Below, piece by piece: positions 5,811-57,961 of a stretch of DNA of 59,253 bases. Position 1 is the stretch's first letter. Each line of letters starts with the position of its first letter. Location: NCBI GenBank assembly GCA_964398445.1, contig CAYNMK010000001.1, positions 1 to 59,253 on the forward strand. Direction: 5' to 3'. The notes beneath the pieces were generated by a model, which was not told the DNA's origin, did no database searches, and worked only from the letters and a program-made list of their open reading frames with translations. Made by a program: the position numbers and the translations under genes. This DNA is from an uncultured Candidatus Saccharibacteria bacterium (lineage in GTDB: Bacteria > Patescibacteriota > Minisyncoccia > UBA6257 > UBA9933).

Positions 5811-5855
5811 CACAGGCTCCGCGAAAAATTTGTTTTGAGTAAAATAAGATAAACT

Positions 5856-7421: not shown

Positions 7422-7431
7422 TTATAATAAT

Positions 7432-8604: not shown

Positions 8605-8685
8605 AAGCAAATTTATGTAAAACAATGCGCGAATCTTCGCGAAATTTCGCGTTAATATTTACAACTTTCGCCGCTATAAACTTAG

Positions 8686-9234: not shown

Positions 9235-9266
9235 GCCACTAATGGATTAGCCGCCAATACATCAAT

Positions 9267-9458: not shown

Positions 9459-9492
9459 CGCACTAGTGACTAATCGCTGGTGACTAATACCT

Positions 9493-10140
9493 ATGCCTAA
9501 ACAAAGCGCATCAACCCAACAATTTGTAGATATTGAAAATATTAGCAACGATGTAATTATTTTAAAAAACGGTTCTTTGCGTCGAGTTTTGATGGTGGCT
9601 GGAATTAATTTTGAGCTTAAATCTGAAGAAGAGCAAAATATTATTACTTATGCTTACCAGAATTTTTTAAACACATTAAATTTTTCCGTCCAATTTATAA
9701 TCCATTCCCGAAAATTAAATATTGATGGCTATCTTGAAAAATTAGCCGGACGCAAAAAGCAAGAAAACAATGAATTGATGAAAAATCAGATTTCCGAATA
9801 CATAGAATTTATCCGCTTATTTGTTGATCAAAATGCAATAATGACAAAAACTTTCTTTGCCATAGTTCCTTATGACCCAATTCAAATTCCTACTGGCGGT
9901 AAAAAAATTTTTGAAATATTTAAGCTAAAAGGAAAGACACAAACCACTCAAACAGAACGAAATTTAGAACAAAAAATTCAACAACTTAACCATAGAACCG
10001 ACCAAATAATAAATGGGCTTACGCAAATAGGCCTCCGCGTAGTTCCGCTTAACAATGAAGAATTGATTGAATTATTTTATAATCTTTATAATCCGGGCAC
10101 TACAGAAAAAGGGGGATTAAAAATTGCCAAAGAACAATAA
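9493..10140 (+). CDS. VirB4/TrsE-like protein, N-terminal part
   Basis: 215 aa, in the same frame as the next ORF and separated from it only by TAA plus 3 codons. The start (QQFVDIENISNDVIILKNGSLRRVLMVAGINF) resembles the N-terminal domain of Gram-positive-type VirB4. Confidence 0.6.
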   Translation: MPKQSASTQQFVDIENISNDVIILKNGSLRRVLMVAGINFELKSEEEQNIITYAYQNFLNTLNFSVQFIIHSRKLNIDGYLEKLAGRKKQENNELMKNQISEYIEFIRLFVDQNAIMTKTFFAIVPYDPIQIPTGGKKIFEIFKLKGKTQTTQTERNLEQKIQQLNHRTDQIINGLTQIGLRVVPLNNEELIELFYNLYNPGTTEKGGLKIAKEQ

Positions 10141-10149
10141 TATACCAAT

Positions 10150-11895
10150 ATGGAGAAAATAAAAATCCAACAATCTTATATGGCAGGCAAGAAAGACATT
10201 AAAGATATTATCGCGCCAACAGCAATAGAAATTAACCCGAATTACCTGAGATTAGGCAATAAATTTGCAAAAACAATTTTTATCTTTACTTATCCCCGAT
10301 ATCTGTCAACAGGCTGGTTTAATTCAATTATTAACCTTCCTAATCTTCTGGATATTTCCATTTTCGTTCACCCTGTTGAGACAAGCTTAGCATTAAAAAA
10401 TCTTCTTAAAAAAACCGCTCAAATTCAAGCCCAACTTTTAGAACGAGACGAAAAAGGATTAGTTAGAGACCCTATGCTAGAAACCGCTTTTCAAGACATT
10501 GAGGCATTACGCGACATACTTCAGCAATCTCAAGAGCGATTATTTAATGTCGGAGCTTATATTACTATTTATGGAGAAACACTTGAAGAATTAAATAAAT
10601 TAGAAGAAAGCATTAATTTCCTACTTGAAAGCCACTTAATTTACGCGAAACCAACAATTTTTCAACAACTCGAAGGAGTCCAGTCAACTCTGCCACTTGG
10701 GCAAGATAAACTTCTTTTTCATACGCCACTTAACTCTGGTCCAGTTTCTTCTTTTTTTCCATTTGCTTCTACTGATTTAACGTCAGACGAAGGAATACTT
10801 TACGGCATTAATCGCCATAATAATACTTTAGTAATTTTTGACCGTTTTTCTTTAGAAAACGCAAATCAAGTTGTATTCGCAAAAGCCGGGGCAGGCAAAA
10901 GCTACGCCACAAAAATCGAAATTCTTCGCTCTTTAATGATGGGAATAGATGTTTTAATTATTGACCCTGAAAAAGAATATCAAAAATTAGCAGAGTCAGT
11001 CGGCGGAAATTTCTTTAAAATTTCTTTAACTTCAGAAAATCAAATCAATCCTTTTGACATTCCAATTATTCCTGAAGACGAAGAACCCGCTGATATTTTT
11101 AAATCCCATATTCTTAATCTTGCGGGACTACTTAAATTAATGCTTGGCCAAATTACACTTGAAGAAGACGCGCTTTTAGACAGGGCAATTATAGAAACAT
11201 ACGCTTCGCGCGACATTACGCCCGAGAAAAAGGACCTTGCGGATATTCAACCTCCAATTATGGAAGATTTGCAAATTATTTTAGAAAATACCGACGGAGG
11301 ACAAGGGCTGGCCCAACGATTAGAAAAATATACCCGAGGCAGTTATGCCGGCTTCACTAACAAACCGACGAATATTGATATTAAAAACCGCTTAATTGTT
11401 TTTTCAATACGCGACCTAGAAGAACAACTTAGGCCGATTGCAATGTACATTGTTCTAAACTTTATTTGGAATCTTATCCGAGCTGAGCTTAAAAAACGAA
11501 TTATGATTATTGACGAAGCGTGGTGGATGATGAAATATCAGGACAGCGCCTCTTTCCTTTTCGCCCTGGCAAAACGTTGCCGAAAATATTACCTAGGCCT
11601 TACCACCATTACTCAAAATGTCGCTGATTTTCTTGAATCACCTTACGGCCGCCCAATTATTACTAATTCCTCTATTCAATTATTACTAAAGCAATCACCA
11701 GCGACCATAGATTTACTGGCAAAAACCTTTAATCTCACAGAAATGGAAAAACAATTATTATTAGAAGCTGCAATCGGCGAAGGATTATTTTTCGCCGGCT
11801 TAAAACATGTAGCAATTCAAATTGTTCCATCTTATTTTGAAGACAAAATCATTACCACAGACCCAGAACAGTTACTAGAGCAAAAAAAAGATTAG
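10150..11895 (+). CDS. virB4: VirB4/TrsE-like type IV secretion ATPase, ATPase part
   Basis: 581 aa. Walker A AKAGAGKSY and Walker B RIMIIDEAWWMM. The segment TYPRYLSTGWFNSIINL is typical of VirB4/CagE/TrbE-class proteins. Confidence 0.85.
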   Translation: MEKIKIQQSYMAGKKDIKDIIAPTAIEINPNYLRLGNKFAKTIFIFTYPRYLSTGWFNSIINLPNLLDISIFVHPVETSLALKNLLKKTAQIQAQLLERDEKGLVRDPMLETAFQDIEALRDILQQSQERLFNVGAYITIYGETLEELNKLEESINFLLESHLIYAKPTIFQQLEGVQSTLPLGQDKLLFHTPLNSGPVSSFFPFASTDLTSDEGILYGINRHNNTLVIFDRFSLENANQVVFAKAGAGKSYATKIEILRSLMMGIDVLIIDPEKEYQKLAESVGGNFFKISLTSENQINPFDIPIIPEDEEPADIFKSHILNLAGLLKLMLGQITLEEDALLDRAIIETYASRDITPEKKDLADIQPPIMEDLQIILENTDGGQGLAQRLEKYTRGSYAGFTNKPTNIDIKNRLIVFSIRDLEEQLRPIAMYIVLNFIWNLIRAELKKRIMIIDEAWWMMKYQDSASFLFALAKRCRKYYLGLTTITQNVADFLESPYGRPIITNSSIQLLLKQSPATIDLLAKTFNLTEMEKQLLLEAAIGEGLFFAGLKHVAIQIVPSYFEDKIITTDPEQLLEQKKD

Positions 11896-11957
11896 CCATT
11901 AAATCATTAGCCACCAATAATCACCGATGGCTAGCGATTAACAGTTAACAACTAAAA

Positions 11958-12332
11958 ATGGAAGAACAAAAAAAAATATCACTGCCCGAAATAATTCTAA
12001 TGATAATGATTGTCGGAGGAGCAGACTTATTTGATGCGATTACCACTTTAGTTGCGCTTGTTCCAATTATTGGCAAAGTTTTTGTTTTTACAAACATTTT
12101 TGTAGGCATCTTTGTTTTGCTAATTATTCAATTCTGGCTTATACTAAAAGGAGGAATTGGATTTAAAAAACAACTCGTTGTTTTAGTCGGCAATTTAATA
12201 GAACTTATTCCAGGATTAAATATCCTGCCAATTCGCACCCTAACTCTATTAATAGCAATTTATCTGATTAACCATCCAAAAATTATGAAAATCGCTAGTC
12301 GAACGCAAAAAACAATAAAAACAAAAGAATGA
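11958..12332 (+). CDS. small integral membrane protein (T4SS-like block)
   Basis: 124 aa with 3 hydrophobic helices. Its stop overlaps the next start (ATGA at 12329-12332). Confidence 0.5.
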   Translation: MEEQKKISLPEIILMIMIVGGADLFDAITTLVALVPIIGKVFVFTNIFVGIFVLLIIQFWLILKGGIGFKKQLVVLVGNLIELIPGLNILPIRTLTLLIAIYLINHPKIMKIASRTQKTIKTKE

Positions 12333-13033
12333 GTATTAATATTAAAAAACTTAAAAATCTTATTATTTTAATAGTCGCGTTTTTTCTTTTCTCTTTTCTT
12401 TTTGTCCCTTACTCTTTAGGGAGTTCCCCGCAATTCCTTGCCTCTTGGCAGACAAATAGCTATGCCCCTTCATGGTATCAAGGAAAAGTTTTTCCAACTT
12501 TCGGTTCTTTGATTGAAATAAATTTTGAGCTAATTGACAATAATAAAATTGTTGATCTTTCAAAAAATAAAATCCGCTGGCACATTAATAATAGATTAAT
12601 AAAAAATGAAACTGATGGATTGGGAATAAAATTTTTAAAATTCACCAACAATAATCTAATTGGAAGAAATATTGAGATAAAAATAACGATTGTGGATTAT
12701 GGCGATCAACCTTTATTTAAAATTATTCGCATTCCAGTGGTAGCCCCCAAAACTATAATTGACGCGCCGCATCCAAAACGAAAAATAGGCGTCGGAGAAA
12801 ATTTATTCCGAGCTTTGCCATTCTTTTTTAATATTAAAAATTTGGACAAACTTTCTTTTGAGTGGCAAGCTGATAAGCAAACTTCTAATATTACTGAAAA
12901 TCCGCAAGAACTTAATTTAAATATTGACGCCCGAACTCTACCTGGAACTACCATAAGGATTAGGGCAATAATTAAAAATATTGCCAACCAATTAGAATTT
13001 GCGAGTGAAAATATTAAAATAGAAATTAAATAA
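12329..13033 (+). CDS. hypothetical secreted or anchored protein (T4SS-like block)
   Basis: 234 aa with an N-terminal signal/anchor (LIILIVAFFLFSFLFVPYSLG). The remainder looks beta-rich. Translationally coupled to the preceding gene. Confidence 0.5.
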   Translation: MSINIKKLKNLIILIVAFFLFSFLFVPYSLGSSPQFLASWQTNSYAPSWYQGKVFPTFGSLIEINFELIDNNKIVDLSKNKIRWHINNRLIKNETDGLGIKFLKFTNNNLIGRNIEIKITIVDYGDQPLFKIIRIPVVAPKTIIDAPHPKRKIGVGENLFRALPFFFNIKNLDKLSFEWQADKQTSNITENPQELNLNIDARTLPGTTIRIRAIIKNIANQLEFASENIKIEIK

Positions 13034-13060
13034 AAACGAATTTACGAGGATAATAAAAAT

Positions 13061-13597
13061 ATGAAAAAAATAATTTTAAAAATTATTCTAATCATCGCTG
13101 TTATTGCTCCTATATCCCCCTTTCCTTTCTTTTCTTTTGATATAATTTCTGCCTCTACTATCAACTTTGAGCCTAGATATCCATGGCAGGAAGAAGGGGT
13201 AGAAACCCCGACCGAACTAATAAGAGTTATTTACATTTACGCCCTGGGCATTGTTAGCGTTGTTGCCCTAATGGTAATGATTTACGGAGGAATTCTATAC
13301 ACCGCTTCTGCGGGCAACACCTCAAAGCAACAAGAAGCCAAAAATTGGATAACAGGCGCTGTTTTAGGTTTAGCGCTTTTATTGGGCGCCTACTTAATAC
13401 TTTGGACAATTAATCCAGATTTAGTACGATTAAGAGATGCGCACTTTCCTGAGCTGGACGAATTTGAGGTCAGAGGGCCCGACGGTCATATTCCTTATCG
13501 AGGCGAAGGAGGTGGCATAATGCCCGAAGAGCGCCTTACTCCCGTTCCCGGAACGGGGATCCCCTTTAATCAAAACCCCCATCAAGCCCAACAATAA
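13061..13597 (+). CDS. VirB2/TrbC-like T4SS pilin candidate
   Basis: 178 aa. Signal peptide, then two hydrophobic helices (IYIYALGIVSVVALMVMIYGGILY and GAVLGLALLLGAYLILW) separated by a short polar loop, then a Gly/Pro-rich tail. This is pilin-like architecture. Confidence 0.5.
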   Translation: MKKIILKIILIIAVIAPISPFPFFSFDIISASTINFEPRYPWQEEGVETPTELIRVIYIYALGIVSVVALMVMIYGGILYTASAGNTSKQQEAKNWITGAVLGLALLLGAYLILWTINPDLVRLRDAHFPELDEFEVRGPDGHIPYRGEGGGIMPEERLTPVPGTGIPFNQNPHQAQQ

Positions 13598-13624
13598 CTT
13601 AAAAAATAACTAAAATCGCTAAAA

Positions 13625-14812
13625 ATGAAAAAAATATCTATTATTATCAGTATAATACTTGGCTTAATGGCTTTAACAGGTGGCATTTATTTTGCCTGGA
13701 AAAAATCCCAAGAAATTTTAATACCCCCGATATCTCCAGCAATTCAATTTCCAATAGTTCCGATAGCTCCAGAACCTCTAATCCCTGATCTGAAGATTGT
13801 CAGCGACCAACCGATTTTTGATTATTTTATCCTGTATAGCTTTGACAAAAATGAATCGCCAACCTTCATTAAAATTTTTTACATTACTCAAAGCGGCAAA
13901 ATATTCAAAGTTACAGAAGATGCTGAAAATGAACTTATTAGCTCGCAAATAAAAAATAATCTTCAACAAGTTAAATCTAGTAATAATGGCGAAAACATTT
14001 TAATAAAACACGGTGATTTAAATATGCCTCAATTTACTATTTTTAATACAATAGAAAAAACATGGGAATTACTTCCCCGTGGAATTACCGCGGCTGATTT
14101 TTCTCCAGACAATAAAAAAATCGCTTACTTAAAAAGTAATGGCAATAAAAGCGATTTAATCATAAAAAATATAGGCGAAGCAAAGACTACTAAAATTATT
14201 TCTCTTTTTCAAAAAGATTTTGACTTAAAATGGTTAACTGCTAAAAAAATTTTATTACTTCCAAAACCATCTTTTTTGATTAATGCCGACATCTGGGCAA
14301 TTAATATAAAGAATAAAACCCTAAACAAGGCAGCTTCTGGAAAAGGGTTAATGATTAATTGGTCGCCTGACGGCTCTATGGGAATAAAATTCTCTGTTGA
14401 TGAAAGAAGAAATCCTCACCTAGACTTAATAGATAGTAATAAAAGAATTCTTGCGAGTTTTGTTTTCTTAGCTCAAACCGATCACGGAGAACAAGTTCAA
14501 GCTGGCCTAAGACACATATTAACCCTGCCAAACAAATGTTCGTTTAATTTAAATTCAACAAAAATTTACTGCGCTGTCCCGCAGGCATATAACTCTATTG
14601 AAAGACCGAACTTACCGGATGACTATTTAAAACGAGCAGTTTATTTTGATGATTTTATCTATGAAATAGATATTATGCAAAACACTTTTAAAGCAATTCA
14701 CAACGATCCTAAATTAATTATTGACGCCTTCAATCTTTCAGTCCATAATACTCAACTTTTCTTTATTAACCGTTACGATGATATGCTTTACAAACTAAGG
14801 ATTAGCCACTAG
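13625..14812 (+). CDS. membrane-anchored protein with TolB/PD40-like beta-propeller repeats
   Basis: 395 aa with an N-terminal TM helix. Repeat signatures FSPDNKKIAYL and WSPDGSM are typical of PD40/WD40-like propellers. Confidence 0.5.
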   Translation: MKKISIIISIILGLMALTGGIYFAWKKSQEILIPPISPAIQFPIVPIAPEPLIPDLKIVSDQPIFDYFILYSFDKNESPTFIKIFYITQSGKIFKVTEDAENELISSQIKNNLQQVKSSNNGENILIKHGDLNMPQFTIFNTIEKTWELLPRGITAADFSPDNKKIAYLKSNGNKSDLIIKNIGEAKTTKIISLFQKDFDLKWLTAKKILLLPKPSFLINADIWAINIKNKTLNKAASGKGLMINWSPDGSMGIKFSVDERRNPHLDLIDSNKRILASFVFLAQTDHGEQVQAGLRHILTLPNKCSFNLNSTKIYCAVPQAYNSIERPNLPDDYLKRAVYFDDFIYEIDIMQNTFKAIHNDPKLIIDAFNLSVHNTQLFFINRYDDMLYKLRISH

Positions 14813-25383: not shown

Positions 25384-25878
25384 ATGATTATAATTCAAGA
25401 ATTTCTTCCTAATCCTACTGGTAAAGATACTAAGGGCGAGTGGATAAAATTATTTAACAGTGGCAATAAAGAAGTTAATCTTGTTAATTGGCAAATAAAA
25501 GACGCCTCAGGAAAAACTTTTGTTTTTGATTCGTTTAATTTTGGGCCGAACGAATTTTTAATTCTTGATCATCAATCTACTAAAATATTTTTAAATAATA
25601 ATGGCGAAACTATATTTCTTTTTGATGAAAATAATAATTTAATTGATCAGTTGGGATTTTCCTGGATGGCTACTAATGATGAAATTATCACAAAAAATGC
25701 AATATTAAAAGGTTCGGATATTGGTTTAGTTCAAAATCAGGCTGAAATTTTTCCAATAATTAATCCCTCAAGTCAATCCGTATCTAATTTTGATTTTTTA
25801 TTAATTGGCTTGGCAATTTGTTTAGTTTTATCGTTTTTATTTATGGTAATTATTAAGCACGTAAGACATAAAGAGTGA
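25384..25878 (+). CDS. lamin-tail-domain (LTD) protein with C-terminal TM anchor
   Basis: 164 aa. LTD-type start IQEFLPNPTGKDTKGEWIKLFNSGNKEVNLVNWQIKD and a C-terminal helix (FDFLLIGLAICLVLSFLFMVII). Confidence 0.6.
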   Translation: MIIIQEFLPNPTGKDTKGEWIKLFNSGNKEVNLVNWQIKDASGKTFVFDSFNFGPNEFLILDHQSTKIFLNNNGETIFLFDENNNLIDQLGFSWMATNDEIITKNAILKGSDIGLVQNQAEIFPIINPSSQSVSNFDFLLIGLAICLVLSFLFMVIIKHVRHKE

Positions 25879-33454: not shown

Positions 33455-33547
33455 ATTTCTAATCTTTTGCAAAGCTCAGAATGATAAAATAAGGCAGTAT
33501 AATTTAGGGATTTACTTTTGAATCATTTTTTATTATTATTAAAAGTA

Positions 33548-34939
33548 ATGGCTAAAAGAAAGGTAAAAATGGTGGATATTGTAAGGTCAAATCAATCAGC
33601 GCATTCGGTTGATTCAACTGATTCAACTGATTCAACTGATTTAACTGATTCAACTTGGAAAACGCAATTTTTAACAAAAAATAAGAAACATCACAAAGAT
33701 CCAGATAAGGATGATGCATTAAAAATATTAAATAAAAAAATAGAACGTTTTGAGGGCGAGGGAGTTGATGTCTTTAATAATGCAGGCATTAGACGTAAAA
33801 AAAATTTTAAAATATTATTTGGTTTAATTTTAGCGCTGGCTTTAGTTAGTTCGGCGGTTTACGCAGCTGTTGTTTTTTTGCCTCGGGCGGAAATTAAAAT
33901 TATTGTAGAAAAATTAAATTGGGAATATTATGACTTTATTATCGCTGATAAAAATATAAGCGAAATTGATTTGATTGAAAAGAAAATTCCAGCGCAAGTG
34001 TTTTCAAAAAAGAAAAATAATAATCTTTTATTTCCTGCAACCGGTATTCAACAGGTTAATCGCAGGGCAACAGGTAAAATTGTAATTTATAATGCCCATA
34101 GCTCTTCTTCTCAGTTATTGGTAGCGAATACTCGGTTTTTGACGCCAGATGGAAAAACTTTTCGTTTAAATAATAGGATTGTTGTGCCCGGGGCTAAAAT
34201 AATTGAAGGCAAAATTGTGCCTTCTAGTATTGAAGCAAAAGTAACAGCTGATAGATTAGGCGAAGAATCTAATATTGGGCCGATTAAACGTTTTTCAATT
34301 CCTGGGTTTAGAGGTTTAAAAAAATATCATAGATTCCACGGGGAGTCAAAGGAGCCGATGACAGGCGGATTTATTGGAGAAGTAGCAGCGCCAACCGCTC
34401 AAGACATTAAAAAAGCTAAAGAAAAAAATAGGCAAATTATTCAGCAAGTTCTTGTTTCTTTTATTGATTCTCAAATACCTGTGGATTTTGAAGTTATTGA
34501 AGAATCTAAACAGTTTAAAATTATAAAAGAAGTGGTTAATGAAAAAACTGACATTGATGGCAATTTTTCGGTTTTTAGTGAGGCTGAATCTTTAGTAATC
34601 GCCTTTTTAAAGGAAGACACAATGGATTTAATGGTTGCTTTGTCTAAAAAAGATTTAAGACAGGGATTTGAATTAAAAGAATATCAATTAAATTATGGAA
34701 TTGGACAGATTGATTTTAATAAGGGTCAAATGCTTTTTCCGGTTGATTTTCAAGGAGTTTTTTGGCAACCGATAAATTTGGAAGAATTTCGTGAATTAAT
34801 AAAAAATAAAAAAGAGCCAGGACTTAGGGATATGATTTTTGCTTTGCCCGGCGCGGAAAGAGCGGTTGTTTCTTTTTGGCCGTTTTGGGTTAATCAGGTG
34901 ACGAATAATATTGATAGAATACTAGTTATATTAGAGTAA
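33548..34939 (+). CDS. hypothetical membrane-anchored protein with N-terminal (D-S-T)n repeat
   Basis: The track ORF starts at TTG 33518; ATG 33548 (MAKRK..) is preferred. One TM helix (ILFGLILALALVSSAVYAAVVFL) and a large extracytoplasmic part. No family recognised. Confidence 0.5.
   Translation: MAKRKVKMVDIVRSNQSAHSVDSTDSTDSTDLTDSTWKTQFLTKNKKHHKDPDKDDALKILNKKIERFEGEGVDVFNNAGIRRKKNFKILFGLILALALVSSAVYAAVVFLPRAEIKIIVEKLNWEYYDFIIADKNISEIDLIEKKIPAQVFSKKKNNNLLFPATGIQQVNRRATGKIVIYNAHSSSSQLLVANTRFLTPDGKTFRLNNRIVVPGAKIIEGKIVPSSIEAKVTADRLGEESNIGPIKRFSIPGFRGLKKYHRFHGESKEPMTGGFIGEVAAPTAQDIKKAKEKNRQIIQQVLVSFIDSQIPVDFEVIEESKQFKIIKEVVNEKTDIDGNFSVFSEAESLVIAFLKEDTMDLMVALSKKDLRQGFELKEYQLNYGIGQIDFNKGQMLFPVDFQGVFWQPINLEEFRELIKNKKEPGLRDMIFALPGAERAVVSFWPFWVNQVTNNIDRILVILE
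33611..33655 (+). repeat. 5 tandem copies of a 9-bp unit (GATTCAACT) inside a CDS
   Basis: gattcaact x3, gatttaact, gattcaact. Encodes DSTDSTDSTDLTDST. Confidence 0.9.
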
Positions 34940-35366: not shown

Positions 35367-36392
35367 ATGAATTTTAGCAAAGCTATTAACAATTTAATAA
35401 ATGATTTGCCTTCTCGACAAAGAGAGATCATAAAAGAAAGATTTGGATTAGGCATCAGCAGGAAGATAACCTTAGCGGCCATAGGAGAAAAATATGGCCT
35501 TACCAGAGAGCGAATAAGACAAATAGAAAAAGAAGCTTTGAAAGTAATTGCTGAAAAAATTAAATTTGGCTTAATAGCCAAAATTTTAGTTGTGGTGAAT
35601 AATCAGTTTAAAAAATTTGGCAATGCGCGCCGGGAAGATTTTTTAGTTAAAGATTTTCAAAAAATATTGAAAGATAAGAATTTAACAATTATGCAAATAA
35701 AATTTATTTTTAAAGCTGTTGGCCATCCTTTTTATCAACTTGAAGATAAAAATTTTTATGGCTTTTGGTATAAAGATAAAAAGATGTTAAATAAAATTAA
35801 TAATTTTATCAATAATTTGGCACAATTTTTTAGTAATAAAAAAGAAGACTTAATTATTGATAAAAAATTTAACGAACTTTTTGTTGAAGCAATTAAACCG
35901 CATTCTTTGCAAAGAGTCATTGCTTTAAATTACGTCTCAGTTTCTAAAAAATTCAGTGTCAATAGTTACGGTGACTTTGGATTAAGTTGTTGGGAAGAAA
36001 TTAATCCCAAAACAATGAAAGCTAAAGCCTATTTAGTGGCAAGGAAATATAAAAAACCGGCTCATTTCAAGCAAATCTCAAAAGAGATTAATAAGGTTAA
36101 TTTTGATAAACGAATTGCTTTATCTCAAACTATTCATAATGAATTAATCAAGGACAAGAGATTTGTTTTGGTGGGTCGAGGAATGTACGCTCTTAAGGAA
36201 TTTGGCTTTATGCCAGGAAATACCAAAGAAATTATCGCGCAGCTGTTAAAAAGCAAGGGACCACTTTCATCTTCGGAGGTCATAAATTTAACTCTTAAAC
36301 AGAGGGTTATTAAAAAGGGAACTGTTTTAATTAATCTTCAAAATAAAAAGCGTTTTAAACGGCTGGTGAATGGGAAATATCATATAGCGTAA
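35367..36392 (+). CDS. sigma-70 region-4-like HTH plus HARE-HTH domain protein
   Basis: 341 aa. The N-terminus RQREIIKERFGLG..ITLAAIGEKYGLTRERIRQIEKEAL is a region-4-type HTH. The C-terminal part (AHFKQISKEI..IHNELIKDKRFVLVGRGMYALKEFG) fits HARE-HTH. No sigma region 2 is present. Confidence 0.55.
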   Translation: MNFSKAINNLINDLPSRQREIIKERFGLGISRKITLAAIGEKYGLTRERIRQIEKEALKVIAEKIKFGLIAKILVVVNNQFKKFGNARREDFLVKDFQKILKDKNLTIMQIKFIFKAVGHPFYQLEDKNFYGFWYKDKKMLNKINNFINNLAQFFSNKKEDLIIDKKFNELFVEAIKPHSLQRVIALNYVSVSKKFSVNSYGDFGLSCWEEINPKTMKAKAYLVARKYKKPAHFKQISKEINKVNFDKRIALSQTIHNELIKDKRFVLVGRGMYALKEFGFMPGNTKEIIAQLLKSKGPLSSSEVINLTLKQRVIKKGTVLINLQNKKRFKRLVNGKYHIA

Positions 36393-36458: not shown

Positions 36459-37820
36459 ATGTTTCAGCCCTTTCTTGATTTTTTTCCTATTATTTTAGAA
36501 TTTTTTAAGGTAAATTTTATAATTTTCCAATGGCTGGGAATTTTTATTTTATTAATAATATTAATTAAAGCATTTAAAGCAACTTTGCTTTTTTATAATC
36601 AATCTGTTTTTAAACAGGGAATTGAATGGACTTTTTTAGAAATTAAAATTCCAAGAGAAGTTCAAAGGACGCCAATGGCAATGGAGCAGTTTTTTGTGAA
36701 TATTCATGCGCTAAAGAATGCTCCAGGTAATTTTTTTGAAAAATATATTGACGGAGAGGTGCCAATGTGGTGGAGCTTAGAAATAACAAGTTTTGGCGGA
36801 GAGGTTCATTTTTACATCAGAACTCCTAAAAAGCATAAGAAAATTGTTGAATCTGGTCTTTATGCTCAGTACCCTTATATAGAGATATCTGAAGTAAGGG
36901 ATTATATGGATGCATTTCCTAAAGAAACTAGTGAGATTTATCAAAAAGGGGGCGATATTTTTGGCGGTGAATTTATTTTAACTAAAGATGATTTTTATCC
37001 AATTACTACTTATGAGTATTTTGAAAAAGTTAAAGGAGAGCTGGCTTTTGACCCTATATCTACGCTTTTAGAAGTATTATCTAATATTGGCAAAGAAGAA
37101 ACGGTTTTTATTCAAATCCTTATTCGCCCAGTTGGATCTGAATGGCATCAAGCTGGAAAGAAGTTTATAGCTGAATTAAGTAGCGGGAAAAAAAAGAAGA
37201 AAAGCGGAAATTCTTTGATTAATATTGTAAGAAATATACTTATGGCGCCCGTTCAAATTCCTGAATGGGGCGAAAAAAGTGAAGATAAAAAAGGAGAAGA
37301 TTCAGCTAACAAATTAACATCTGAAGAAAAAAAGATTATTGAAGTAATTGATGAAAAAATTTCTAAACCTAGCTTTGATATAATAATTCGCTATATTTAT
37401 TCTGCGCCAAATTCTATTTTTAGCGCTAATTTCATCTCAAAAGGTATTTTGGGGGCCATAAATCAATATTCTTCGCAATCCCTTAATTCTTTTAAGGGCA
37501 ATGCTATGTCTGAGACTAGGGGTCGTTGGATTTATTTTCCTTATTTTTTCATAAAGCAAAAAATTGAGGTTAGAAAACAGCGAATTTTGTATAATTACCG
37601 CAACAGAAAGATGCCTGAAGAATTAAAATTAGGCGAAATTTATGCTTCGCATTATTTAGATTCCAATGTTAAGTCAAAGAGTTTTGTTTTAAATGTTGCA
37701 GAATTAGCTACTATTTATCATGTTCCAGCTGAAGAAGTTTTAACTGCTCCACATACCAAGAGGGCGGAAAGCAAAACAATAGGCCCGCCAGCTGGCTTGC
37801 CGATTTTTGCGGAAGAATAA
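36459..37820 (+). CDS. hypothetical membrane protein (first gene of the ATPase module)
   Basis: 453 aa. Two N-terminal hydrophobic segments, then a soluble domain (LEIKIPREVQRTP..WWSLEITSFGGEVHFYIRTP) and a K-rich linker. No family recognised. Confidence 0.5.
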   Translation: MFQPFLDFFPIILEFFKVNFIIFQWLGIFILLIILIKAFKATLLFYNQSVFKQGIEWTFLEIKIPREVQRTPMAMEQFFVNIHALKNAPGNFFEKYIDGEVPMWWSLEITSFGGEVHFYIRTPKKHKKIVESGLYAQYPYIEISEVRDYMDAFPKETSEIYQKGGDIFGGEFILTKDDFYPITTYEYFEKVKGELAFDPISTLLEVLSNIGKEETVFIQILIRPVGSEWHQAGKKFIAELSSGKKKKKSGNSLINIVRNILMAPVQIPEWGEKSEDKKGEDSANKLTSEEKKIIEVIDEKISKPSFDIIIRYIYSAPNSIFSANFISKGILGAINQYSSQSLNSFKGNAMSETRGRWIYFPYFFIKQKIEVRKQRILYNYRNRKMPEELKLGEIYASHYLDSNVKSKSFVLNVAELATIYHVPAEEVLTAPHTKRAESKTIGPPAGLPIFAEE

Positions 37821-37839
37821 AAATTTTTAAATTTTAAAC

Positions 37840-38313
37840 ATGACTGAATTTTTTTTTATTTTAAGAATTATTATAATTATTTTATTGGTCGGCCTTTTTA
37901 TTGGTATATTATTTTTACTTATAAAATCATTTTATTTTAGGCCTAAGTTGAGGATTTTTCAGGCACTTAATTTTTTAAAAGCGCCCAAGGTTTCTAATGA
38001 AGAATTTATTCGTGAAAAATGGGGAAAATTATTAGGAAAAATAAAATCTGGCGATGAACAAACTCTGCGTTTGGCAATTATTGAGGCCGATAATTTGGTT
38101 GACGCAATTTTAATTAAGCGTGGCTATCAGGGGGAAAGCATGGGAAAACGTTTAAAATCAATTAATTTTGACGAAACAAACCTCAACGATTTATGGAGGG
38201 CGCATAAAATTAGGAACAGAATAGCTCATGAGTCAGAATTTCACATCACAGAGATTGAGTCCAGAAAAATAATAGGCATTTATCATAAGGCGTTAAAGGA
38301 TTTAATGGCTTAA
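37840..38313 (+). CDS. small membrane-anchored protein with HEPN-like RNxxxH motif
   Basis: 157 aa. N-terminal TM helix (FFFILRIIIIILLVGLFIGILFLLI), then a helical domain ending in LWRAHKIRNRIAHES (R-N-x-x-x-H). Confidence 0.4.
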   Translation: MTEFFFILRIIIIILLVGLFIGILFLLIKSFYFRPKLRIFQALNFLKAPKVSNEEFIREKWGKLLGKIKSGDEQTLRLAIIEADNLVDAILIKRGYQGESMGKRLKSINFDETNLNDLWRAHKIRNRIAHESEFHITEIESRKIIGIYHKALKDLMA

Positions 38314-38389
38314 GAATTAAGACTAATTAACACATTAAGCTGATATTAGTTTTTAGGTTTTGTGTAGTTTTTATGAACAAATTGAAGCA

Positions 38390-39757
38390 ATGAAAGAAAA
38401 TAAAGTTAAAATAATTAAATACGCTCCTCCTCCGCCTGATTTGCCTATTTATGGCCAGGTAAGTCCAGACGAATTTTCTTTTTTTGGAAGGACTAATTAT
38501 GAAACCGATTTGGAGTCAAAAAAATTTATATTTGGCGTTAAACGAAAAGATCGGCGTCGCCATTTTTATATTGTTGGTAAGTCAGGTACCGGAAAGTCAA
38601 AACTTTTAGAATTATTTATTAGGCAGGATATTATTTGCGGGCATGGAGTTTGTTTGATGGATTCGCATGGTGATGTTGTTGCTGATATTCTTGATTTTGT
38701 GCCTGAGAACAGAATAAAAGATGTAATTTTAATTGACCCATCGGATGCCCAGTGGCCAGCGTCTTTTAATCCATTATTTAATATTGCCCCTGAATTAAGG
38801 CATCGGACTGCTCAAGGATTGACAGAAATAATGGAAAAGCAGTTTGGCGCCAACTGGACGCCGCGATTGGAATATATTTTTAGATTTATATCTTTGGCTT
38901 TGTTGGATTACCCCCGCGCCACAATACAAGGAATGATTTTAATGCTTACAGACCATAATTATCGCCAAAAAGTTATTAAATATATTGAAGATGAGGCAAT
39001 TAAGCGTTTTTGGGCTATTGAATTTGTTAGTTGGTCCGAAAGGTTTGATGCCGAAGCCATTATTCCTTTGCTTAATAAGTTAGGGAAGTTTTTTTCTAAT
39101 CCTTTATTGCGTTATATTTTTAGTCAAAAAGAAGGCAAGGTTAATATTGAAAAAATAATAAATGAAAAAAAAATTCTTTTGATTAATTTATCAAAAGGAA
39201 AATTAGATGAAGAAAGTTTTAATTTTTTTAGTTCAATCTTTATTTTTAAAATTCATCAGGCTGGAGTGGGGAGAGCTAGTATGCCCAAAGAAGAGAAAAA
39301 AGATTTTTATCTTTATATTGATGAGTTTTACGATATTACCACTGACGCCTTTGTCAATATTTTAACTGAAACTAAAAAATATGGCATTGCGCTTACAATT
39401 ACGCATCAATATAGAGCCCAGTTTTCGTCGCAGATTATGGCGATTATTTTAAATAATGTAGCTAATATGGTTATTTTTAGGCTTGGCGGCGAAGACGCTA
39501 AGTTTTTTGAAAAAGAAATGGCTCCTGTTTTTAAGGATAGGGATATGATTAATTTAGGGATGCAAGAATTTTATATCAAAATGATTATTAATGGTGAAGC
39601 CTATGATCCTTTTTCAGCTAAGACCTTGAATATTTTGCCAGCTGTCCATCCTTCCTATAGGGATAAAATTATTAAACATAATCACCAAGTTTATTGTATG
39701 TCATTAGAAGAGGTAAAAAGAGAAATTGCCGAAGAAGAGGGACTAATTATTGCATAA
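38390..39757 (+). CDS. VirD4/TraD-like (FtsK/HerA-superfamily) P-loop ATPase without TM segment
   Basis: The track ORF starts at TTG 38360; ATG 38390 (MKENKVK) is preferred. Walker A IVGKSGTGKSKL, Walker B LYIDEFYD, and KYGIALTITHQYRAQF resembling the TraG/TraD C-terminal NTPase region. Confidence 0.6.
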   Translation: MKENKVKIIKYAPPPPDLPIYGQVSPDEFSFFGRTNYETDLESKKFIFGVKRKDRRRHFYIVGKSGTGKSKLLELFIRQDIICGHGVCLMDSHGDVVADILDFVPENRIKDVILIDPSDAQWPASFNPLFNIAPELRHRTAQGLTEIMEKQFGANWTPRLEYIFRFISLALLDYPRATIQGMILMLTDHNYRQKVIKYIEDEAIKRFWAIEFVSWSERFDAEAIIPLLNKLGKFFSNPLLRYIFSQKEGKVNIEKIINEKKILLINLSKGKLDEESFNFFSSIFIFKIHQAGVGRASMPKEEKKDFYLYIDEFYDITTDAFVNILTETKKYGIALTITHQYRAQFSSQIMAIILNNVANMVIFRLGGEDAKFFEKEMAPVFKDRDMINLGMQEFYIKMIINGEAYDPFSAKTLNILPAVHPSYRDKIIKHNHQVYCMSLEEVKREIAEEEGLIIA

Positions 39758-46463: not shown

Positions 46464-46581
46464 ATAATCGCTAAATAGACGACAAATAACACGCTAAACC
46501 ATGCTAAACTTTTTTAGTTTCGTGTATGTTTCGTGTAGGCTGCGAAGCGGCACAAGTTTCGTGTTGGTTTTGCGCAAGTTT

Positions 46582-48468
46582 ATGGCATTAGAAGAATTAG
46601 AAAAAAAACTTTATCAACGCAATTCGCAAGCTGATAAAAATAAAGTTATTCCCGAAAAAGAAGGTCAAGCTAAAAAGAATCTAACTTCTTTTTCAAAAAA
46701 AGAATGGACCGAAGAAGGGTTAAAAACGCAAACAAATGAGCGATCAACAACGATTGTTTCAATGTTTAGCCATTATGGCAAAATTTTATTTTGGATTTTA
46801 TTGGCTGTATTTTTAGTAGTTAGCGGAATAGCTGGCTTTTATCTTTATAAATTTTTTACTGTTAAAGATATTAATCTCTCTGTAGGGGCGCCTCAAGAGG
46901 TCTTAATTGGTGTTCCTTTTGATTTAACGGTTAATTTTAGCAATAATTCTAATAATATTCTTCAGAATGCGATACTTTCAATAAGTTTGCCAATTGATTC
47001 AACCTTAACAGGTGATAATTTTGATAGGCGTGTTATTAGTAAAAACTTAGGTGATTTAGATATTGGCGTCGGTATTCGTGAAGAATTTTCAATTATTATC
47101 GTGGGCGAAGAGCGAACAATTAAACAGTTTGATGTATCTATGTCATATGCCTTAGAAGCTACATTAAAAACGCGTTTTGAAGAAGCTAAAAGCGTTGAAG
47201 TAATTGTCCGAGAGTCGGGAATTAAATTAGATTTAATAACTCCTCAAAGGGTTTTTAATAACGAAAAGTTTGATATAGAAATTCATTTTCAGAATGTATC
47301 AAATATAGATTTTTCTGGACTTGAATTAGAATTAACTTATCCGCCAAATTTTATTTTTAAAAAAGCAAGTATTCAACCCATAATTGGCAATAGGATTTGG
47401 AATTTAGGCAAGTTAAAGGAAAATTCTAAGGGAAACTTAATTATAAGCGGTAGTATTATTGGGCCGGAATTATCATTTTTTGAAATTAAAAGTTCTTTAG
47501 ATGTGGCTTTTTTAGGTCAAAAGTATTTAATTAATGAAAAATCTGCCAGTTTAAATATTGCCCCTTCTCCTCTTTCATTAGTGATTAGCGTTAATAACTA
47601 TGTTGATTATTTGGCTTCTCCTGGCGGATCCTTAAGATATGTTATTAATTATAGTAATGACACTGATATTGGATTAAAAGATGTTGTTATTAACGCGCAA
47701 TTAATTGGTGAAATGTTTGATTTTTTAACATTGGAAACTCAAGCTTTTTTTAATTCTTTAGACAAAACTCTTGTTTGGAATGTTGCCAATACTCCGGAAT
47801 TGCGATTTTTGAAGCCAGGCGCTTCGGGTTTTTTGGAATTTACAATAAAATTAAAACCTGATTATCCGATAAAAAGATTGTCGGATAGAAATTTTATTCT
47901 AAAAGTTCAGGCTGAAATTAATTCTCCTACAGTTCCGCATCAGGTGGTTGCTGACAGAACAGTTAGCGTGGCGAGTATTGAGACTAAAGTAATTGGCAAA
48001 ATTGCTATTGACGCTTATGCTTCTTTTGAAGAAGGAAATTGGCCGCCTAAGGCAAATGAGTCAACCAATCTTACTGTCCATTGGATAATTACTAATTTTT
48101 CAAATGATGTTTACGATATTGAAGTTAGGTCATTTTTGCAGTCTGGTATTACTTGGGTAGGCAAAGTAGAGAGCAATATTGAAAATCAGCCGTTTCATAA
48201 CGAAAGAACAGGAGAAATAATTTGGAAAATTGAAAGAATTCCGGCAACTAAAGGAATTATTGATGAGCCAATTAAAGCAACTTTTCAAATTAAAGCTGTG
48301 CCAAGCATTATTCAGGTTGGTTCTTATATGCCATTAATAAATAAAACATCTATTGTGGTAGTTGATGGATTTGTGAATTTGGAATTAAGAAATTTTGATA
48401 AATTCTTGTCTACTCAATTAATAGATGACCTTAAAATTGGTTCTGCCAGAGGAGAGGTGGTGCCATAA
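46582..48468 (+). CDS. hypothetical large membrane-anchored surface protein (repeated beta-sandwich-like segments)
   Basis: The track ORF starts at 46501; ATG 46582 (MALEELEKKLY) is preferred. One TM helix (ILFWILLAVFLVVSGIAGFYLY), then about 540 aa of beta-rich sequence with recurring patterns reminiscent of DUF11/CARDB-like folds. Unverified. Confidence 0.45.
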   Translation: MALEELEKKLYQRNSQADKNKVIPEKEGQAKKNLTSFSKKEWTEEGLKTQTNERSTTIVSMFSHYGKILFWILLAVFLVVSGIAGFYLYKFFTVKDINLSVGAPQEVLIGVPFDLTVNFSNNSNNILQNAILSISLPIDSTLTGDNFDRRVISKNLGDLDIGVGIREEFSIIIVGEERTIKQFDVSMSYALEATLKTRFEEAKSVEVIVRESGIKLDLITPQRVFNNEKFDIEIHFQNVSNIDFSGLELELTYPPNFIFKKASIQPIIGNRIWNLGKLKENSKGNLIISGSIIGPELSFFEIKSSLDVAFLGQKYLINEKSASLNIAPSPLSLVISVNNYVDYLASPGGSLRYVINYSNDTDIGLKDVVINAQLIGEMFDFLTLETQAFFNSLDKTLVWNVANTPELRFLKPGASGFLEFTIKLKPDYPIKRLSDRNFILKVQAEINSPTVPHQVVADRTVSVASIETKVIGKIAIDAYASFEEGNWPPKANESTNLTVHWIITNFSNDVYDIEVRSFLQSGITWVGKVESNIENQPFHNERTGEIIWKIERIPATKGIIDEPIKATFQIKAVPSIIQVGSYMPLINKTSIVVVDGFVNLELRNFDKFLSTQLIDDLKIGSARGEVVP

Positions 48469-55261: not shown

Positions 55262-57961
55262 ATGGAAGAACAAGCTCAAAATACCATAAGTAAAAAACCC
55301 AAACGAACTTTTTGGAAGTTTATTTTTGTATTTTTGGGAATAATGACTTTTATTTTGGTTGGTTATCCTTTGGCAAAAGACGCTTATTTTGATTATAAAG
55401 CCAATCAGACACTTAAAGATTATCAGGAATTTGAAAGACAATACGGCACAATTGTAAAATCATGGGATGCAGACAAGTCTTTTTTTGCCCAAGTCGGGGG
55501 AACTGTTGGCAACGCCGTTTTTTTGGTCGATGGTTTTTTTACTGGTTTATTTGACAATGATAAACAGGACTTAAAATTTGCCGGACAAGTTAGTTTGAAT
55601 GAAAAGGAGAATATAAACTTAGCGCCAGTTGGTTATGCTTTATTTAATGAGACAAAAGAAAAAGAGCAGGCACGACATAGGGTAGGCGTGAATATTGCAG
55701 AAAAGACAGAAGATAAAAAAATAATAAGAATATACAGAGAAGAACAACCTGTGGAAATTCAATCTTATAAAGAAGAGCATATTAAGATTGATAATCAAGA
55801 TTTAGATAAAAAACAAGAAAAAGAGCAACAACAAGAAATCCCTGAATTAATCCTTGAATTAATCCCCGAGTTAATTTATAAAAAATGCAGCTTTGTGATG
55901 GGAGACGAACAAACGCCGTCTCATAAAGGAGTTATTATTAACGAGGTTGCCTGGATGGGTGGGTCAAAGACTTTTAATTTAAAGTCGAGCGATGAATGGA
56001 TTGAGTTAAAAAATACTTCTAACAGCGATATTGATTTAAGCGGCTGGCAGGTTTTGGATGTTGATGAGCAGATTAAAGTAATTTTTGGAAAGCAAGACAA
56101 AAGAGCTGTTATTAATGCTAAAATTTCAGCAAACGGCTTTTTTCTTTTAGAAAGAACAGATGACGATTCTGTGCTAGACATTATTGCGGATTTTGTCTAT
56201 GTTGGCGCGCTTTCAAATAATGGTAAAACTAGGCCCGAAGGTTTGCGTCTTTTTAATAGTCAATGTGATTTAATTGATGAAGTTTTAACGGGATCAAATT
56301 GGCCAGCAGGTGATAATTCTCAAAAACGAACAATGGAGCGGTCTGGTGATTTATCATGGCATACTTACAATGGCATAGTTAAAAATGGTATTTTTGGTAC
56401 GCCAAAAGCGAAAAATTCTCAACCGTTAGCAGTTGTTTTCGCAGGTAGTAGCGGAGGCGATGAAAACGACCGCAAAGGAGTGGTCAGCAGTGGAGGAGAC
56501 GGAAATACGCCGATTAATAATCCGCAACCAATAATAAGTGATCAACAGCAATCTTTGGTAAAACTTTTTATTTCTGAAGTTCAGATTAGAGGCAATACGG
56601 TAAATGATGAATTTATTGAACTTTATAATCCTAATTCCGAACCGATTAATTTAACTGGTTGGTCGATTAAGAAAAAAACCAAAAGCGGCAAAGAATATTT
56701 ACTTTTAGCAAGTAGTCGTCTTGACGGGAAAAGTATTTCAGCTAAAAGTTATTTTTTGGCTGTTAATGAAGGGGGTTACCAAGGAGAAATAATACCTGAT
56801 GTAGGTTGGGCAAAATCAAATACTATTGCCAAAAATAATACTATTCTTCTTTACGATGTTAATCAGAATATTATTGATAAAGTTGGATTTGGTGGGGCTC
56901 AGGACTTTGAAACCAATCCGACATCAAATCCGGGAAGCAATCAAAGCATCTCTCGTCAGCTAGAAACTGACACTGATAATAATGCGCAGGACTTTATTTT
57001 ATCAAATCCAACTCCAAAAAATTCTACTTTTAGGGATGGATTTTTAACCCCAGCAATTTTAGTTGAAGATAAACAAGAGTTAGTTAATCAATCGCCAACG
57101 GCTTTTTTTGATTTTTCACCTCAAAGCCCAGAAATTAATCAGGAAATAATTTTTAATGCCGCTTCTTCAACTGATGATGGCAATATTGTTTTATATAATT
57201 GGGATTTTGGCGATGGCCAAAACGTGGCAACAACGCAAGCTGTTGTTGTTCATTCTTATTCAACTGCTGGAGATTATTTAGTTAAATTGGTTGTTTTTGA
57301 TGACAATAATGTTAGCTCTACTATTAGTTTAACTATTGAGGTTGTGTCTTTCGCGCCAATTATGTTACTGACTCAATCAGAAACTAATCACATCGTGATT
57401 AGTGAAATTCAAGTGGCAGGCGTTGACGCAGGCGATGAATTTATTGAACTTTATAATCCTACCGAAGCATTGATTGATGTGTCAAATTGGTCTATTCAGT
57501 ATGTGAGCGGAAGAGTAGAGAGTGTTTCTGCCTTAACAGTGTCAAAGAAAAATTTTGTAAATGGCAATGCATTGTCTGCGAATGGATTTTTTTTAATTGC
57601 CCGAGCTAAAAATTCGGATGGCACAAATGGTTACACTGGTAGTGTGTTGCCGGATATGACACATCGTTCATTTAGTTTGTCAGGGGCATTAGCAGGCGCA
57701 AAGATATTTTTGGTGTCAAATCAGGAAAAAATTGAGAATGAAAATGATTCTGATATTGTTGATATGGTAGATTATTCGTTTGTTGTACCTAAAGCGTTTA
57801 CAAGTTTGGAACGAAAAGCATGGCAAAACGGTAATTGTGTTTCAGCTCAAAGTGAGGGCGAGTTTTTAGGAAATAGTTGCAATAACAATAATAATAATGA
57901 TTTTAAAATTCGCCAAATATCTAATCCGCAAAATTCAAACAGCTTGCCAGAGCCGCGCTAA
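55262..57961 (+). CDS. large membrane-anchored surface protein with three lamin-tail domains and a PKD domain
   Basis: 899 aa with an N-terminal TM helix. LTD signatures: VIINEVAWMG..DEWIELKNTSNSDIDLSGWQV, LFISEVQIRGNTVNDEFIELYNPNSEPINLTGWSI and IVISEIQVAGVDAGDEFIELYNPTEALIDVSNWSI. PKD signature: YNWDFGDGQ..HSYSTAGDYLVKLVVFDDNN. Confidence 0.65.
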   Translation: MEEQAQNTISKKPKRTFWKFIFVFLGIMTFILVGYPLAKDAYFDYKANQTLKDYQEFERQYGTIVKSWDADKSFFAQVGGTVGNAVFLVDGFFTGLFDNDKQDLKFAGQVSLNEKENINLAPVGYALFNETKEKEQARHRVGVNIAEKTEDKKIIRIYREEQPVEIQSYKEEHIKIDNQDLDKKQEKEQQQEIPELILELIPELIYKKCSFVMGDEQTPSHKGVIINEVAWMGGSKTFNLKSSDEWIELKNTSNSDIDLSGWQVLDVDEQIKVIFGKQDKRAVINAKISANGFFLLERTDDDSVLDIIADFVYVGALSNNGKTRPEGLRLFNSQCDLIDEVLTGSNWPAGDNSQKRTMERSGDLSWHTYNGIVKNGIFGTPKAKNSQPLAVVFAGSSGGDENDRKGVVSSGGDGNTPINNPQPIISDQQQSLVKLFISEVQIRGNTVNDEFIELYNPNSEPINLTGWSIKKKTKSGKEYLLLASSRLDGKSISAKSYFLAVNEGGYQGEIIPDVGWAKSNTIAKNNTILLYDVNQNIIDKVGFGGAQDFETNPTSNPGSNQSISRQLETDTDNNAQDFILSNPTPKNSTFRDGFLTPAILVEDKQELVNQSPTAFFDFSPQSPEINQEIIFNAASSTDDGNIVLYNWDFGDGQNVATTQAVVVHSYSTAGDYLVKLVVFDDNNVSSTISLTIEVVSFAPIMLLTQSETNHIVISEIQVAGVDAGDEFIELYNPTEALIDVSNWSIQYVSGRVESVSALTVSKKNFVNGNALSANGFFLIARAKNSDGTNGYTGSVLPDMTHRSFSLSGALAGAKIFLVSNQEKIENENDSDIVDMVDYSFVVPKAFTSLERKAWQNGNCVSAQSEGEFLGNSCNNNNNNDFKIRQISNPQNSNSLPEPR

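Follow-up and report, generated by a model that had tools for sequence, protein, structure and literature searches.

An uncultured Candidatus Saccharibacteria bacterium encodes, within a run of four genes, what appears to be a type IV coupling protein (T4CP) divided into two polypeptides, with the gene of a membrane-tethered HEPN protein lying between the two halves. The stretch of DNA analysed (the window) covers positions 1 to 59,253 of the forward strand of contig CAYNMK010000001.1 (GenBank assembly GCA_964398445.1), 59,253 nucleotides (nt) in all, and is low-GC (~32%) chromosomal DNA of the Patescibacteria, or candidate phyla radiation (CPR), a group of ultra-small bacteria. The genes, here called S, A, B and C, code respectively for a protein with sigma-70 region 4 and HARE-HTH domains, a membrane protein of family DUF8128, the HEPN protein, and a soluble ATPase related to TrwB and VirD4 (Table 1). 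This two-gene putative coupling motor with a membrane HEPN gene between its parts is a conserved chromosomal arrangement that is undescribed in the literature searched.

VirD4-like ATPases are found in nearly all Patescibacteria, far from an essential, relaxase-less type IV secretion system (T4SS). The present analysis would make one of the two VirD4-like paralogues part of a split coupling protein, the other half being DUF8128. New with respect to the literature searched are the reading of DUF8128 as a detached T4CP half, the S-A-B-C operon, and a CPR-wide family of membrane HEPN proteins with two genomic contexts.

A soluble ATPase of the coupling protein family

Protein C is, judging by its sequence, a divergent ATPase of the T4CP (TrwB/VirD4) family that lacks a membrane domain, as a preliminary description of the window had proposed from the letters alone. 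It passes the gathering threshold of the Pfam family PF10412 (TrwB_AAD_bind) with 30.1 bits against 20.5, over residues 64-376, and the match covers the stretch from Walker A to Walker B (profile positions 13-311 of 387), where the all-alpha insert of a T4CP would be expected. The motifs quoted in that description are all present: Walker A, GKSGTGKS, at residues 73-80, Walker B, YLYIDE, at 317-322 (YLYIDEF, 317-323), and ITHQYRAQF. The score for PF02534 stays below the cut-off (16.2 versus 20.1), and weaker Pfam matches are to DUF87/HerA and TraG-D_C. Among NCBIfam models the VirD4-like CD1115 family (conju_CD1115, E 2e-13) matches best, followed by TraD families, all far below their equivalog cut-offs (50 versus 250 bits for CD1115), and TrwB is the only meaningful sequence match in the PDB (E 0.002). 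No hydrophobic or transmembrane (TM) segment is found in C, nor in 44 of 56 homologues of the same type (C1). A tblastn search of PLSDB with C returned relatives in Actinomycetota, Bacillota and archaea.

In relatives, another T4CP-like paralogue, C2, is often encoded no more than a few kb from the module (for example at 10626-12290 on the minus strand of locus L003, at 12653-14650 of L087, and in L108, L135 and L166). It is about 550-800 amino acids (aa) long, in some cases with a zinc-finger C-terminus, and was not found in the 59-kb window. C2 does not have the N-terminal extension of C, which holds a PP-x-x-LPI-[FY] motif (APPPPDLPIYG in C) that is present in 47 of 56 C1 N-termini versus none of 18 C2 paralogues.

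DUF8128 as the putative other half

Protein A has a hydrophobic region at residues ~5-47 with a positive-inside bias; TM anchors on both genes upstream of C had been predicted in the preliminary description, and both are borne out. PF26449 (DUF8128) is the precomputed Pfam label of A (P0120) and of 118 of the 119 other listed homologues, a label that could only be taken over as assigned, the local Pfam set being without this model. DUF8128 is a large family, with 3,233 clusters at 50% identity (E<=1e-3), of which no mention was found in the literature searched; the split reading would assign it a role. An AlphaFold2 model of A (pLDDT 82, pTM 0.78) consists of a TM anchor and a multi-domain alpha/beta cytoplasmic region, and its best Foldseek matches in the PDB are to TrwK/VirB4 of R388 (E 4.5e-4, probability 0.99). 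A sequence-profile search of A against PDB sequences gave no match. Weak Abi_2/AbiD matches on A were dismissed as spurious since they fall on a beta-strand region.

The relationship between DUF8128 and coupling proteins emerges from plasmids. In a search of 1.84 billion representative proteins with an A profile, the best 150 matches were stand-alone orthologues of 400-530 aa, and the fusions described here were found by tblastn of C against plasmids together with a custom DUF8128 hidden Markov model (HMM). Plasmid pFDU301A of Priestia megaterium carries a TM segment, DUF8128 (E 5e-24) and the Walker A part of a C-type ATPase (E 1e-26) in one open reading frame (ORF). The fused gene (L170, 4890-8549) is broken into at least three ORFs, with the remainder of the ATPase in the downstream ones, and the record is unannotated there; either pseudogenisation or a series of sequencing errors probably accounts for the disruption. 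An 812-aa T4CP of an Embleya plasmid (WP_331738717.1) has colinear DUF8128 matches ahead of its ATPase (HMM E 2e-6), and its gene sits between VirB4-like and relaxase-like genes, in a PrgI/VirB4-like/relaxase-like cluster. The hhalign comparison of DUF8128 with this protein is colinear over 298 columns (E 6.6e-4) and includes the linker motifs 'ELA..H.P' and 'PP..(L/I)P', while C matches its ATPase half with 29% identity (tblastn, E 5e-42; C-family HMM, E 1e-80). On the Bacillus subtilis plasmid CP121709, a 272-aa DUF8128-like ORF is followed directly by one for a 412-aa ATPase that has no TM domain (WGD66105.1/WGD66104.1), and the pair adjoins relaxase-like and VirB4-like genes; hhalign relates the smaller protein to DUF8128 with a probability of 96.5% (E 8e-10).

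Because DUF8128 is fused to, or directly adjacent to, C-type ATPases on plasmids of Priestia, Embleya and Bacillus, it most plausibly represents the N-terminal part of a monoderm class of T4CPs. A would then be this N-terminal half in detached form, and A and C together would amount to one T4CP split in two. The preliminary description had offered a coupling unit divided into parts as one of its options, and these conjugative-type clusters of Bacillota and Actinomycetota speak for it. The details of the junction fit as well: the tail at the C-terminus of A is colinear with the Embleya linker 'ELAALAHLP...PPARIP', which makes it the likely counterpart of the segment that leads into the ATPase domain of fused T4CPs. 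The PP-x-x-LPI-[FY] motif of C recurs in 100 of 120 A C-termini (GPPAGLPIF in A), with an equivalent PPARIP in the linker ahead of the Embleya ATPase. Such a motif common to the tail of A and the N-terminus of C could be a relic of gene fission or a shared docking peptide.

A conserved four-gene operon

S, A, B and C form a tight, conserved operon. Synteny was followed in 80 metagenome loci collected through A, independently of the motif of B, 49 of which have enough downstream DNA. The order A-B-C is kept in 37 of these 49, A-C without B occurs in six (~12%), A-B without a nearby C in two, and A alone in four. S is located directly upstream of A in nearly all A-centred loci with room for it (70 S-A junctions, median gap ~86 nt), and also in loci L003, L085, L086 and L087. 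Gaps within the module are tiny or negative across the relatives, with a median of 6 nt between A and B (at most 30 nt in 58 of 72) and 12 nt between B and C (at most 30 nt in 39 of 61), and start and stop codons frequently overlap. In the window, A and B are separated by 19 nt, and B and C by 46 nt if C starts at its TTG, or by 76 nt if it starts at the ATG at 38390. The ATG is the more probable of the two, as it corresponds to the point, M(K/S)E..IIKYAPPPP, where the homologues start. The operon of three same-strand genes first described for the window thus stands, coordinates and gaps included, and its order recurs in dozens of independent loci.

B retains its exact place between A and C across a divergence of A down to ~38% identity. 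This fixed position, often with overlapping codons, indicates selection for co-expression. Insertions between module genes are occasionally tolerated in relatives: B and C are separated in L011, L013 and L098 by the gene of a 549-aa protein that is rich in cysteine and has numerous CxxC motifs, and A and B in L003 by that of a 595-aa protein without Pfam matches. Neither a B-like gene nor an S gene was found in the six plasmid loci examined, among them those with DUF8128/T4CP pairs. As B-like genes are absent from these plasmid pairs, the insertion of a HEPN gene into the coupling module appears to be specific to the CPR.

A membrane-tethered HEPN family

B has a hydrophobic region at residues 1-35, forming a single TM helix with the N-terminus outside and the C-terminus inside, so that its domain is cytoplasmic. 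An excess of lysine and arginine follows the helix in 90% of 140 members of the B family, which under the positive-inside rule places the HEPN domain in the cytoplasm. In the AlphaFold2 model (pLDDT 88) a helical domain comes after the long TM helix, and 12 of its 13 best Foldseek matches in the PDB are HEPN or HEPN-MNT-type entries, among them 2hsb, 1ufb, 1ylm, 5yep/6m6w (HepT), 7ae6 and 1wol; the proteins matched include AF_0298, TT1696, YutE and ST0689. Probabilities for the HEPN matches are mostly 0.85-1.0, with three at 0.41-0.63, and the best reach target-normalised TM-scores of 0.48-0.61, at E-values of only 0.07-0.8.

Sequence searches converge on the same superfamily from below threshold. 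B itself matches no Pfam HEPN family above threshold (pEK499_p136, E 0.029), and its profile finds no match among PDB sequences. Sub-threshold Pfam matches of B-family members converge on HEPN families, HEPN_Swt1 appearing in 8 of 32 (best E 0.0029). Since no curated HEPN model reaches threshold, B is at most a new family within the HEPN superfamily. The predicted fold supports this placement, and B probably constitutes a new HEPN family that is membrane-tethered and bears the canonical R-N-x3-H motif.

The motif stretch, LWRAHKIRNRIAHES, occupies residues 118-132. The preliminary description had recognised the R-N-x-x-x-H signature correctly and had placed it at the very end of the protein; one further helix (138-156) follows it. 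Homologues of B number 119, and all the named ones come from Patescibacteria lineages. In an alignment of 32 sequences of the Paceibacteria type and from Saccharibacteria, D84, G98, A121, H122, R125, N126, R127 and H130 are invariant, and the R, N and H on which the HEPN assignment had been based are therefore conserved among homologues. H-x2-R-N-x3-H is retained in 58 of 63 module-linked copies, which were sampled without reference to the motif. In L119, L126, L147, L162 and L165 the copy of B beside A has a decayed motif, with either the catalytic histidine lost (..RLR[KRN]ELT[NS]TP) or the whole motif lost (AH[NE]YYLKLE). This pattern suggests a non-catalytic role of B in some lineages. Because B is absent from ~12% of modules and its motif decays in some copies, RNase activity does not seem obligatory for the module.

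The B family has a second genomic home. Relatives were found in 549 species genomes (one genome per species), a lower bound, as the pattern used, W-x-AHK[IV]RNR, misses module-linked copies with AHR..RN. In other CPR lineages, B directly follows gatC-gatA in 67 of the ~80 best loci (among L016-L084), often with ligA upstream, and in the Saccharimonadales genome GCA_049651625.1 (L001, 8001-8423) it lies between gatA and gatB, overlapping both at stop and start codons. Many CPR lineages thus have a membrane HEPN gene embedded in the operon of the tRNA-dependent amidotransferase. Neither gatA nor gatC occurs in the window or in the module loci examined. Module-linked and gatA-linked copies separate on a neighbour-joining tree, with two context changes among 133 sequences, and R127 is conserved only in the gatA-linked group as compared with the module-linked one. 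The idea that the link of B to A and C is limited to the clade of the window was rejected, A-centred sampling having shown a wider spread. The two homes of the family, in a putative T4CP operon and in a gatCAB operon, point to RNA-linked functions at the membrane, as far as gene context can indicate.

The regulator-like protein S

S matches Sigma70_r4 (E 6.5e-14, residues 11-60) and HARE-HTH (E 1.2e-5, residues 216-279), the latter being a domain of RNA polymerase delta. These domains make it a putative DNA-binding regulator or adaptor of the module. S keeps its place ahead of DUF8128 throughout the family, in many cases with secD-secF before it, and its region 4 is similar to the one in MzaA, the sigma factor of the MZA defence system.

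Relation to the type IV secretion system

The distant VirB4 block noted in the preliminary description is real. It spans positions 3182-14812 of the window and comprises PrgI/VirB3, TrsD/TraC-N-like, VirB4 and pilin genes with seven further ORFs that have no Pfam match (3182-8604, 11958-13033 and 13625-14812). The block adjoins ksgA, rnpA and dnaA, as published for Paceibacteria, and more than 100 CPR homologues share 72% identity or more with its VirB4. No T4CP is encoded in the block, and no relaxase family was matched among the window ORFs scanned. One mark of T4CPs, being encoded with a T4SS and/or a relaxase, is not seen in C, whose module lies ~25 kb from the VirB4 block, on the other side of oriC.

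This separation is common in the CPR. According to a recent survey, 5,713 VirD4-like T4CP homologues occur in 2,918 of 3,035 CPR genomes (PMC12102498), a ratio of roughly two that agrees with C1 plus C2. No more than 148 of the 5,713 lie near virB4, and the CPR T4SSs are described as derived from the mating pair formation type FATA (MPF-FATA), with the T4CP homologue usually encoded elsewhere (PMC12102498). Common descent of the module with the MPF-FATA-like T4SS of the CPR is plausible. Present-day coupling of the two is unproven, and the genome numbers leave room for an independent role.

Proposed function and alternatives

The preferred reading, to which we give a probability of about one half, is that A and C make up a split T4CP of the monoderm type, with A anchoring the C motor, the T4SS as the likely outlet, B as an RNA-acting or gating component and S as a regulator. 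A would supply the membrane anchor and the N-terminal cytoplasmic domain, and C the TrwB/VirD4-like motor domain, which A would dock on the cytoplasmic face of the membrane. There C may oligomerise and, at the expense of ATP, recruit a macromolecular substrate or drive it forward. This substrate would most likely leave through the relaxase-less T4SS 25 kb away by oriC, which plausibly shares the same monoderm conjugation ancestry and has no T4CP of its own. B, presumably as a HEPN dimer beside the motor, would most likely bind or cleave RNA, or gate the motor in another way, and S would likely serve as DNA-binding regulator or adaptor of the unit.

Several observations weigh against this scheme. 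The TM-scores between A and VirB4 are low (0.25-0.34), and a VAO-type oxidase ranks fourth among the matches. Comparison of the A family with the CPR VirB4 family by hhalign gave a probability of 0.12 and no similarity at the profile level, so that a VirB4-like N-terminal domain in A is suggested by Foldseek only. The hhalign probability for the Embleya protein is likewise weak, at 27%. The motif of B is decayed in 5 of 63 module-linked copies, and the sister group of B resides with gatC-gatA, unrelated to T4CPs. VirB4 is present in only 2,417 of the 3,035 surveyed genomes versus 2,918 with a T4CP homologue, hence at least ~500 CPR genomes keep such a homologue without VirB4; and the t4cp homologue of Southlakia epibionticum is non-essential, whereas its T4SS genes are essential (PMC12102498), an argument for a function that is wholly or in part separate from the T4SS.

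The last two points feed the strongest alternative, namely that the split T4CP, the HEPN protein and S have been exapted as a self-contained, T4SS-independent membrane module of the CPR, used for instance in nucleic-acid handling, import or export, or in RNA processing at the membrane. The excess of T4CP homologues over VirB4, their rarity near virB4 and the dispensable homologue of S. epibionticum all favour it, and the authors of the survey raise exaptation themselves (PMC12102498). It is also favoured by the partners B and S, which seem to have been gained in the CPR and were not found in the plasmid loci examined, and by the position of the module among housekeeping genes (SecDF, EF-P and MreC, in the window and in the loci of relatives). 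However, both systems are present in most CPR genomes, bona fide systems often encode the T4CP away from virB4 (PMC12102498), and the module encodes no channel component unless B oligomerises into one. We consider such an exaptation possible, if less probable than a split T4CP serving the T4SS.

A more specific version is a speculation that we hold to be unlikely. S-A-B-C would be a self-contained CPR membrane machine made from a coupling protein, in which the motor and the HEPN protein, as an RNase or a Csx28-like conduit, would move or process RNA or DNA, and the sister HEPN protein of gatCAB would do a related job on tRNA. If true, this would concern nucleic-acid movement and processing at the membrane of host-dependent, nucleotide-auxotrophic CPR cells.

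Another possibility is that A and C form the functional pair and B is a passenger, a general CPR membrane HEPN protein with, for example, an RNA-processing or tRNA-related task, which landed here by chance in one lineage, just as its relatives did in gatCA(B). The breadth of the family in the single motif scan of species genomes, its prevalence after gatC-gatA, the overlap with gatA and gatB in the Saccharimonadales genome, the A-C modules without B and the degenerate motif of some module-linked copies would all agree with this. Yet the two groups of B part on the tree and differ at conserved positions, and the fixed, often codon-overlapping place of B between A and C speaks for selection on co-expression, which makes a passenger rather improbable. 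Least credible by far is a defence or toxin module with a HEPN RNase effector under the control of an ATPase, as in abortive infection or toxin-antitoxin systems; a defence-like module had been among the options of the preliminary description. In its favour, HEPN domains often serve as effectors in defence, PADLOC model mad8 (E 6.6e-13) and, weakly, HerA models match C, and S resembles the sigma part of MzaA. Against it, the ATPase matches reflect a generic P-loop likeness, no stronger than that to T4CP families, and B has no PADLOC match and no MNT or antitoxin partner, its neighbours being DUF8128 and the ATPase or, in the sister group, gatA. The module is moreover inherited vertically at a constant housekeeping site, with a GC content that matches its surroundings and no GC anomaly, and no relatives of A or B were found in 2.9 million viral contigs.

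Genomic setting

The genes around the module have housekeeping functions (YchF, the sigma-r4/HARE-HTH protein, MreC, UPF0182, SPFH/NfeD, RecO and tRNA synthetases). The origin of replication lies near 17 kb, where the sign of the GC skew flips; rnpA, yidC and jag are minus-strand genes there, dnaA and dnaN plus-strand genes. No tRNA genes are present in the window, and promoter and terminator scans of this AT-rich DNA gave no usable signal. Two lamin-tail-domain proteins are encoded at 25384-25878 and 55262-57961; the larger (899 aa) also has PKD domains and is probably a surface protein. Neither Pfam nor NCBIfam gives a significant match for two large ORFs, at 33518-34939 (473 aa, one TM segment) and 46501-48468 (655 aa); the sole match of the former is a weak one to the GlxA beta-barrel.

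Table 1. Genes and sequence features of the module and of the T4SS block, in window coordinates.
Feature	Position	Strand	Description
S	35367..36392	+	341 aa; sigma-70 region 4 (N-terminal) and HARE-HTH (central); first gene of the module
A	36459..37820	+	453 aa; DUF8128 (PF26449); N-terminal membrane anchor and large cytoplasmic alpha/beta region
C-terminal tail of A	37695..37817	+	conserved ..ELATIYHVP..TAPHTKRAESK..GPPAGLPIF..
B	37840..38313	+	157 aa; single-pass membrane protein, HEPN-fold domain at residues ~53-157
HEPN signature of B, H122-K-I-R125-N126-R-I-A-H130	38203..38229	+	R-x4-H, with the canonical N following R
C	38360..39757	+	465 aa from TTG; soluble TrwB/VirD4-family P-loop ATPase; probable true start ATG 38390
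N-terminal extension of C, IIKYAPPPPDLPIYGQ	38411..38458	+	PP-x-x-LPI-[FY] motif, as in the tail of A
PrgI/VirB3	8686-9234		T4SS block
TrsD/TraC-N-like ORF	9493-10140		T4SS block
VirB4	10150-11895		T4SS block
T4SS pilin	13061-13597		T4SS block

Comparison with known systems

A recognised subclass of T4CPs has no TM domain and depends instead on a membrane protein encoded by another gene (PMC7434980). In the TraJ/TraI pair of pIP501, as in C and A, a soluble VirD4-like ATPase is encoded directly after the gene of a putative membrane anchor (PMC7434980), and the TraJ homologue of pRE25 is annotated as a member of the CD1115 family, the best NCBIfam match of C. The possibility that TraI of pIP501/pRE25 is a DUF8128 homologue was rejected, as the pRE25 TraI homologue (143 aa) gives no match. 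TraI/TraJ is therefore best regarded, on these comparisons, as a functional analogue whose TraI does not appear homologous to A. Unlike the CPR module, the pIP501 genes belong to a conjugative tra operon that includes a relaxase, and have no HEPN gene between them.

The pairs of Embleya, B. subtilis and Priestia resemble the CPR module more closely, with a DUF8128-like part followed by a C-type ATPase, fused or adjacent. They are plasmid-borne and accompanied by relaxase-like and VirB4-like genes, whereas the CPR module is chromosomal and relaxase-less, with B interposed.

B shares with canonical HEPN RNases (HepT/DUF86, AF_0298 and TT1696-type proteins) a helical bundle with R-N-x3-H at the equivalent place. 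It differs from them in its N-terminal TM helix, the lack of an MNT partner, its housekeeping distribution and the absence of an above-threshold Pfam HEPN match. In architecture it recalls Csx28 of type VI-B2 CRISPR systems, which also combines one N-terminal TM helix with a cytoplasmic four-helix HEPN-like domain and has 177 aa versus 157 (bioRxiv 10.1101/2021.11.02.466367). In Csx28, however, the HEPN motif is divergent and non-catalytic, while B keeps the canonical RN-x3-H; Csx28 also assembles into an octameric pore and acts together with Cas13b. No Cas genes are found among the Pfam-annotated ORFs of the window, and the 50 best PDB fold matches of B do not include Csx28.

Among the Patescibacteria themselves, C fits the orphan VirD4-like T4CPs described by Quinonero-Coronel et al. 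(2025, PMC12102498), which are chromosomal, far from virB4 and without a relaxase. HEPN proteins and T4CP partners were not found mentioned in the portion of that text searched. The oriC-proximal T4SS block of the window agrees with the description given there. With the module, these orphan T4CP genes would gain a defined set of partners, a membrane HEPN protein and a sigma-r4/HARE-HTH protein.

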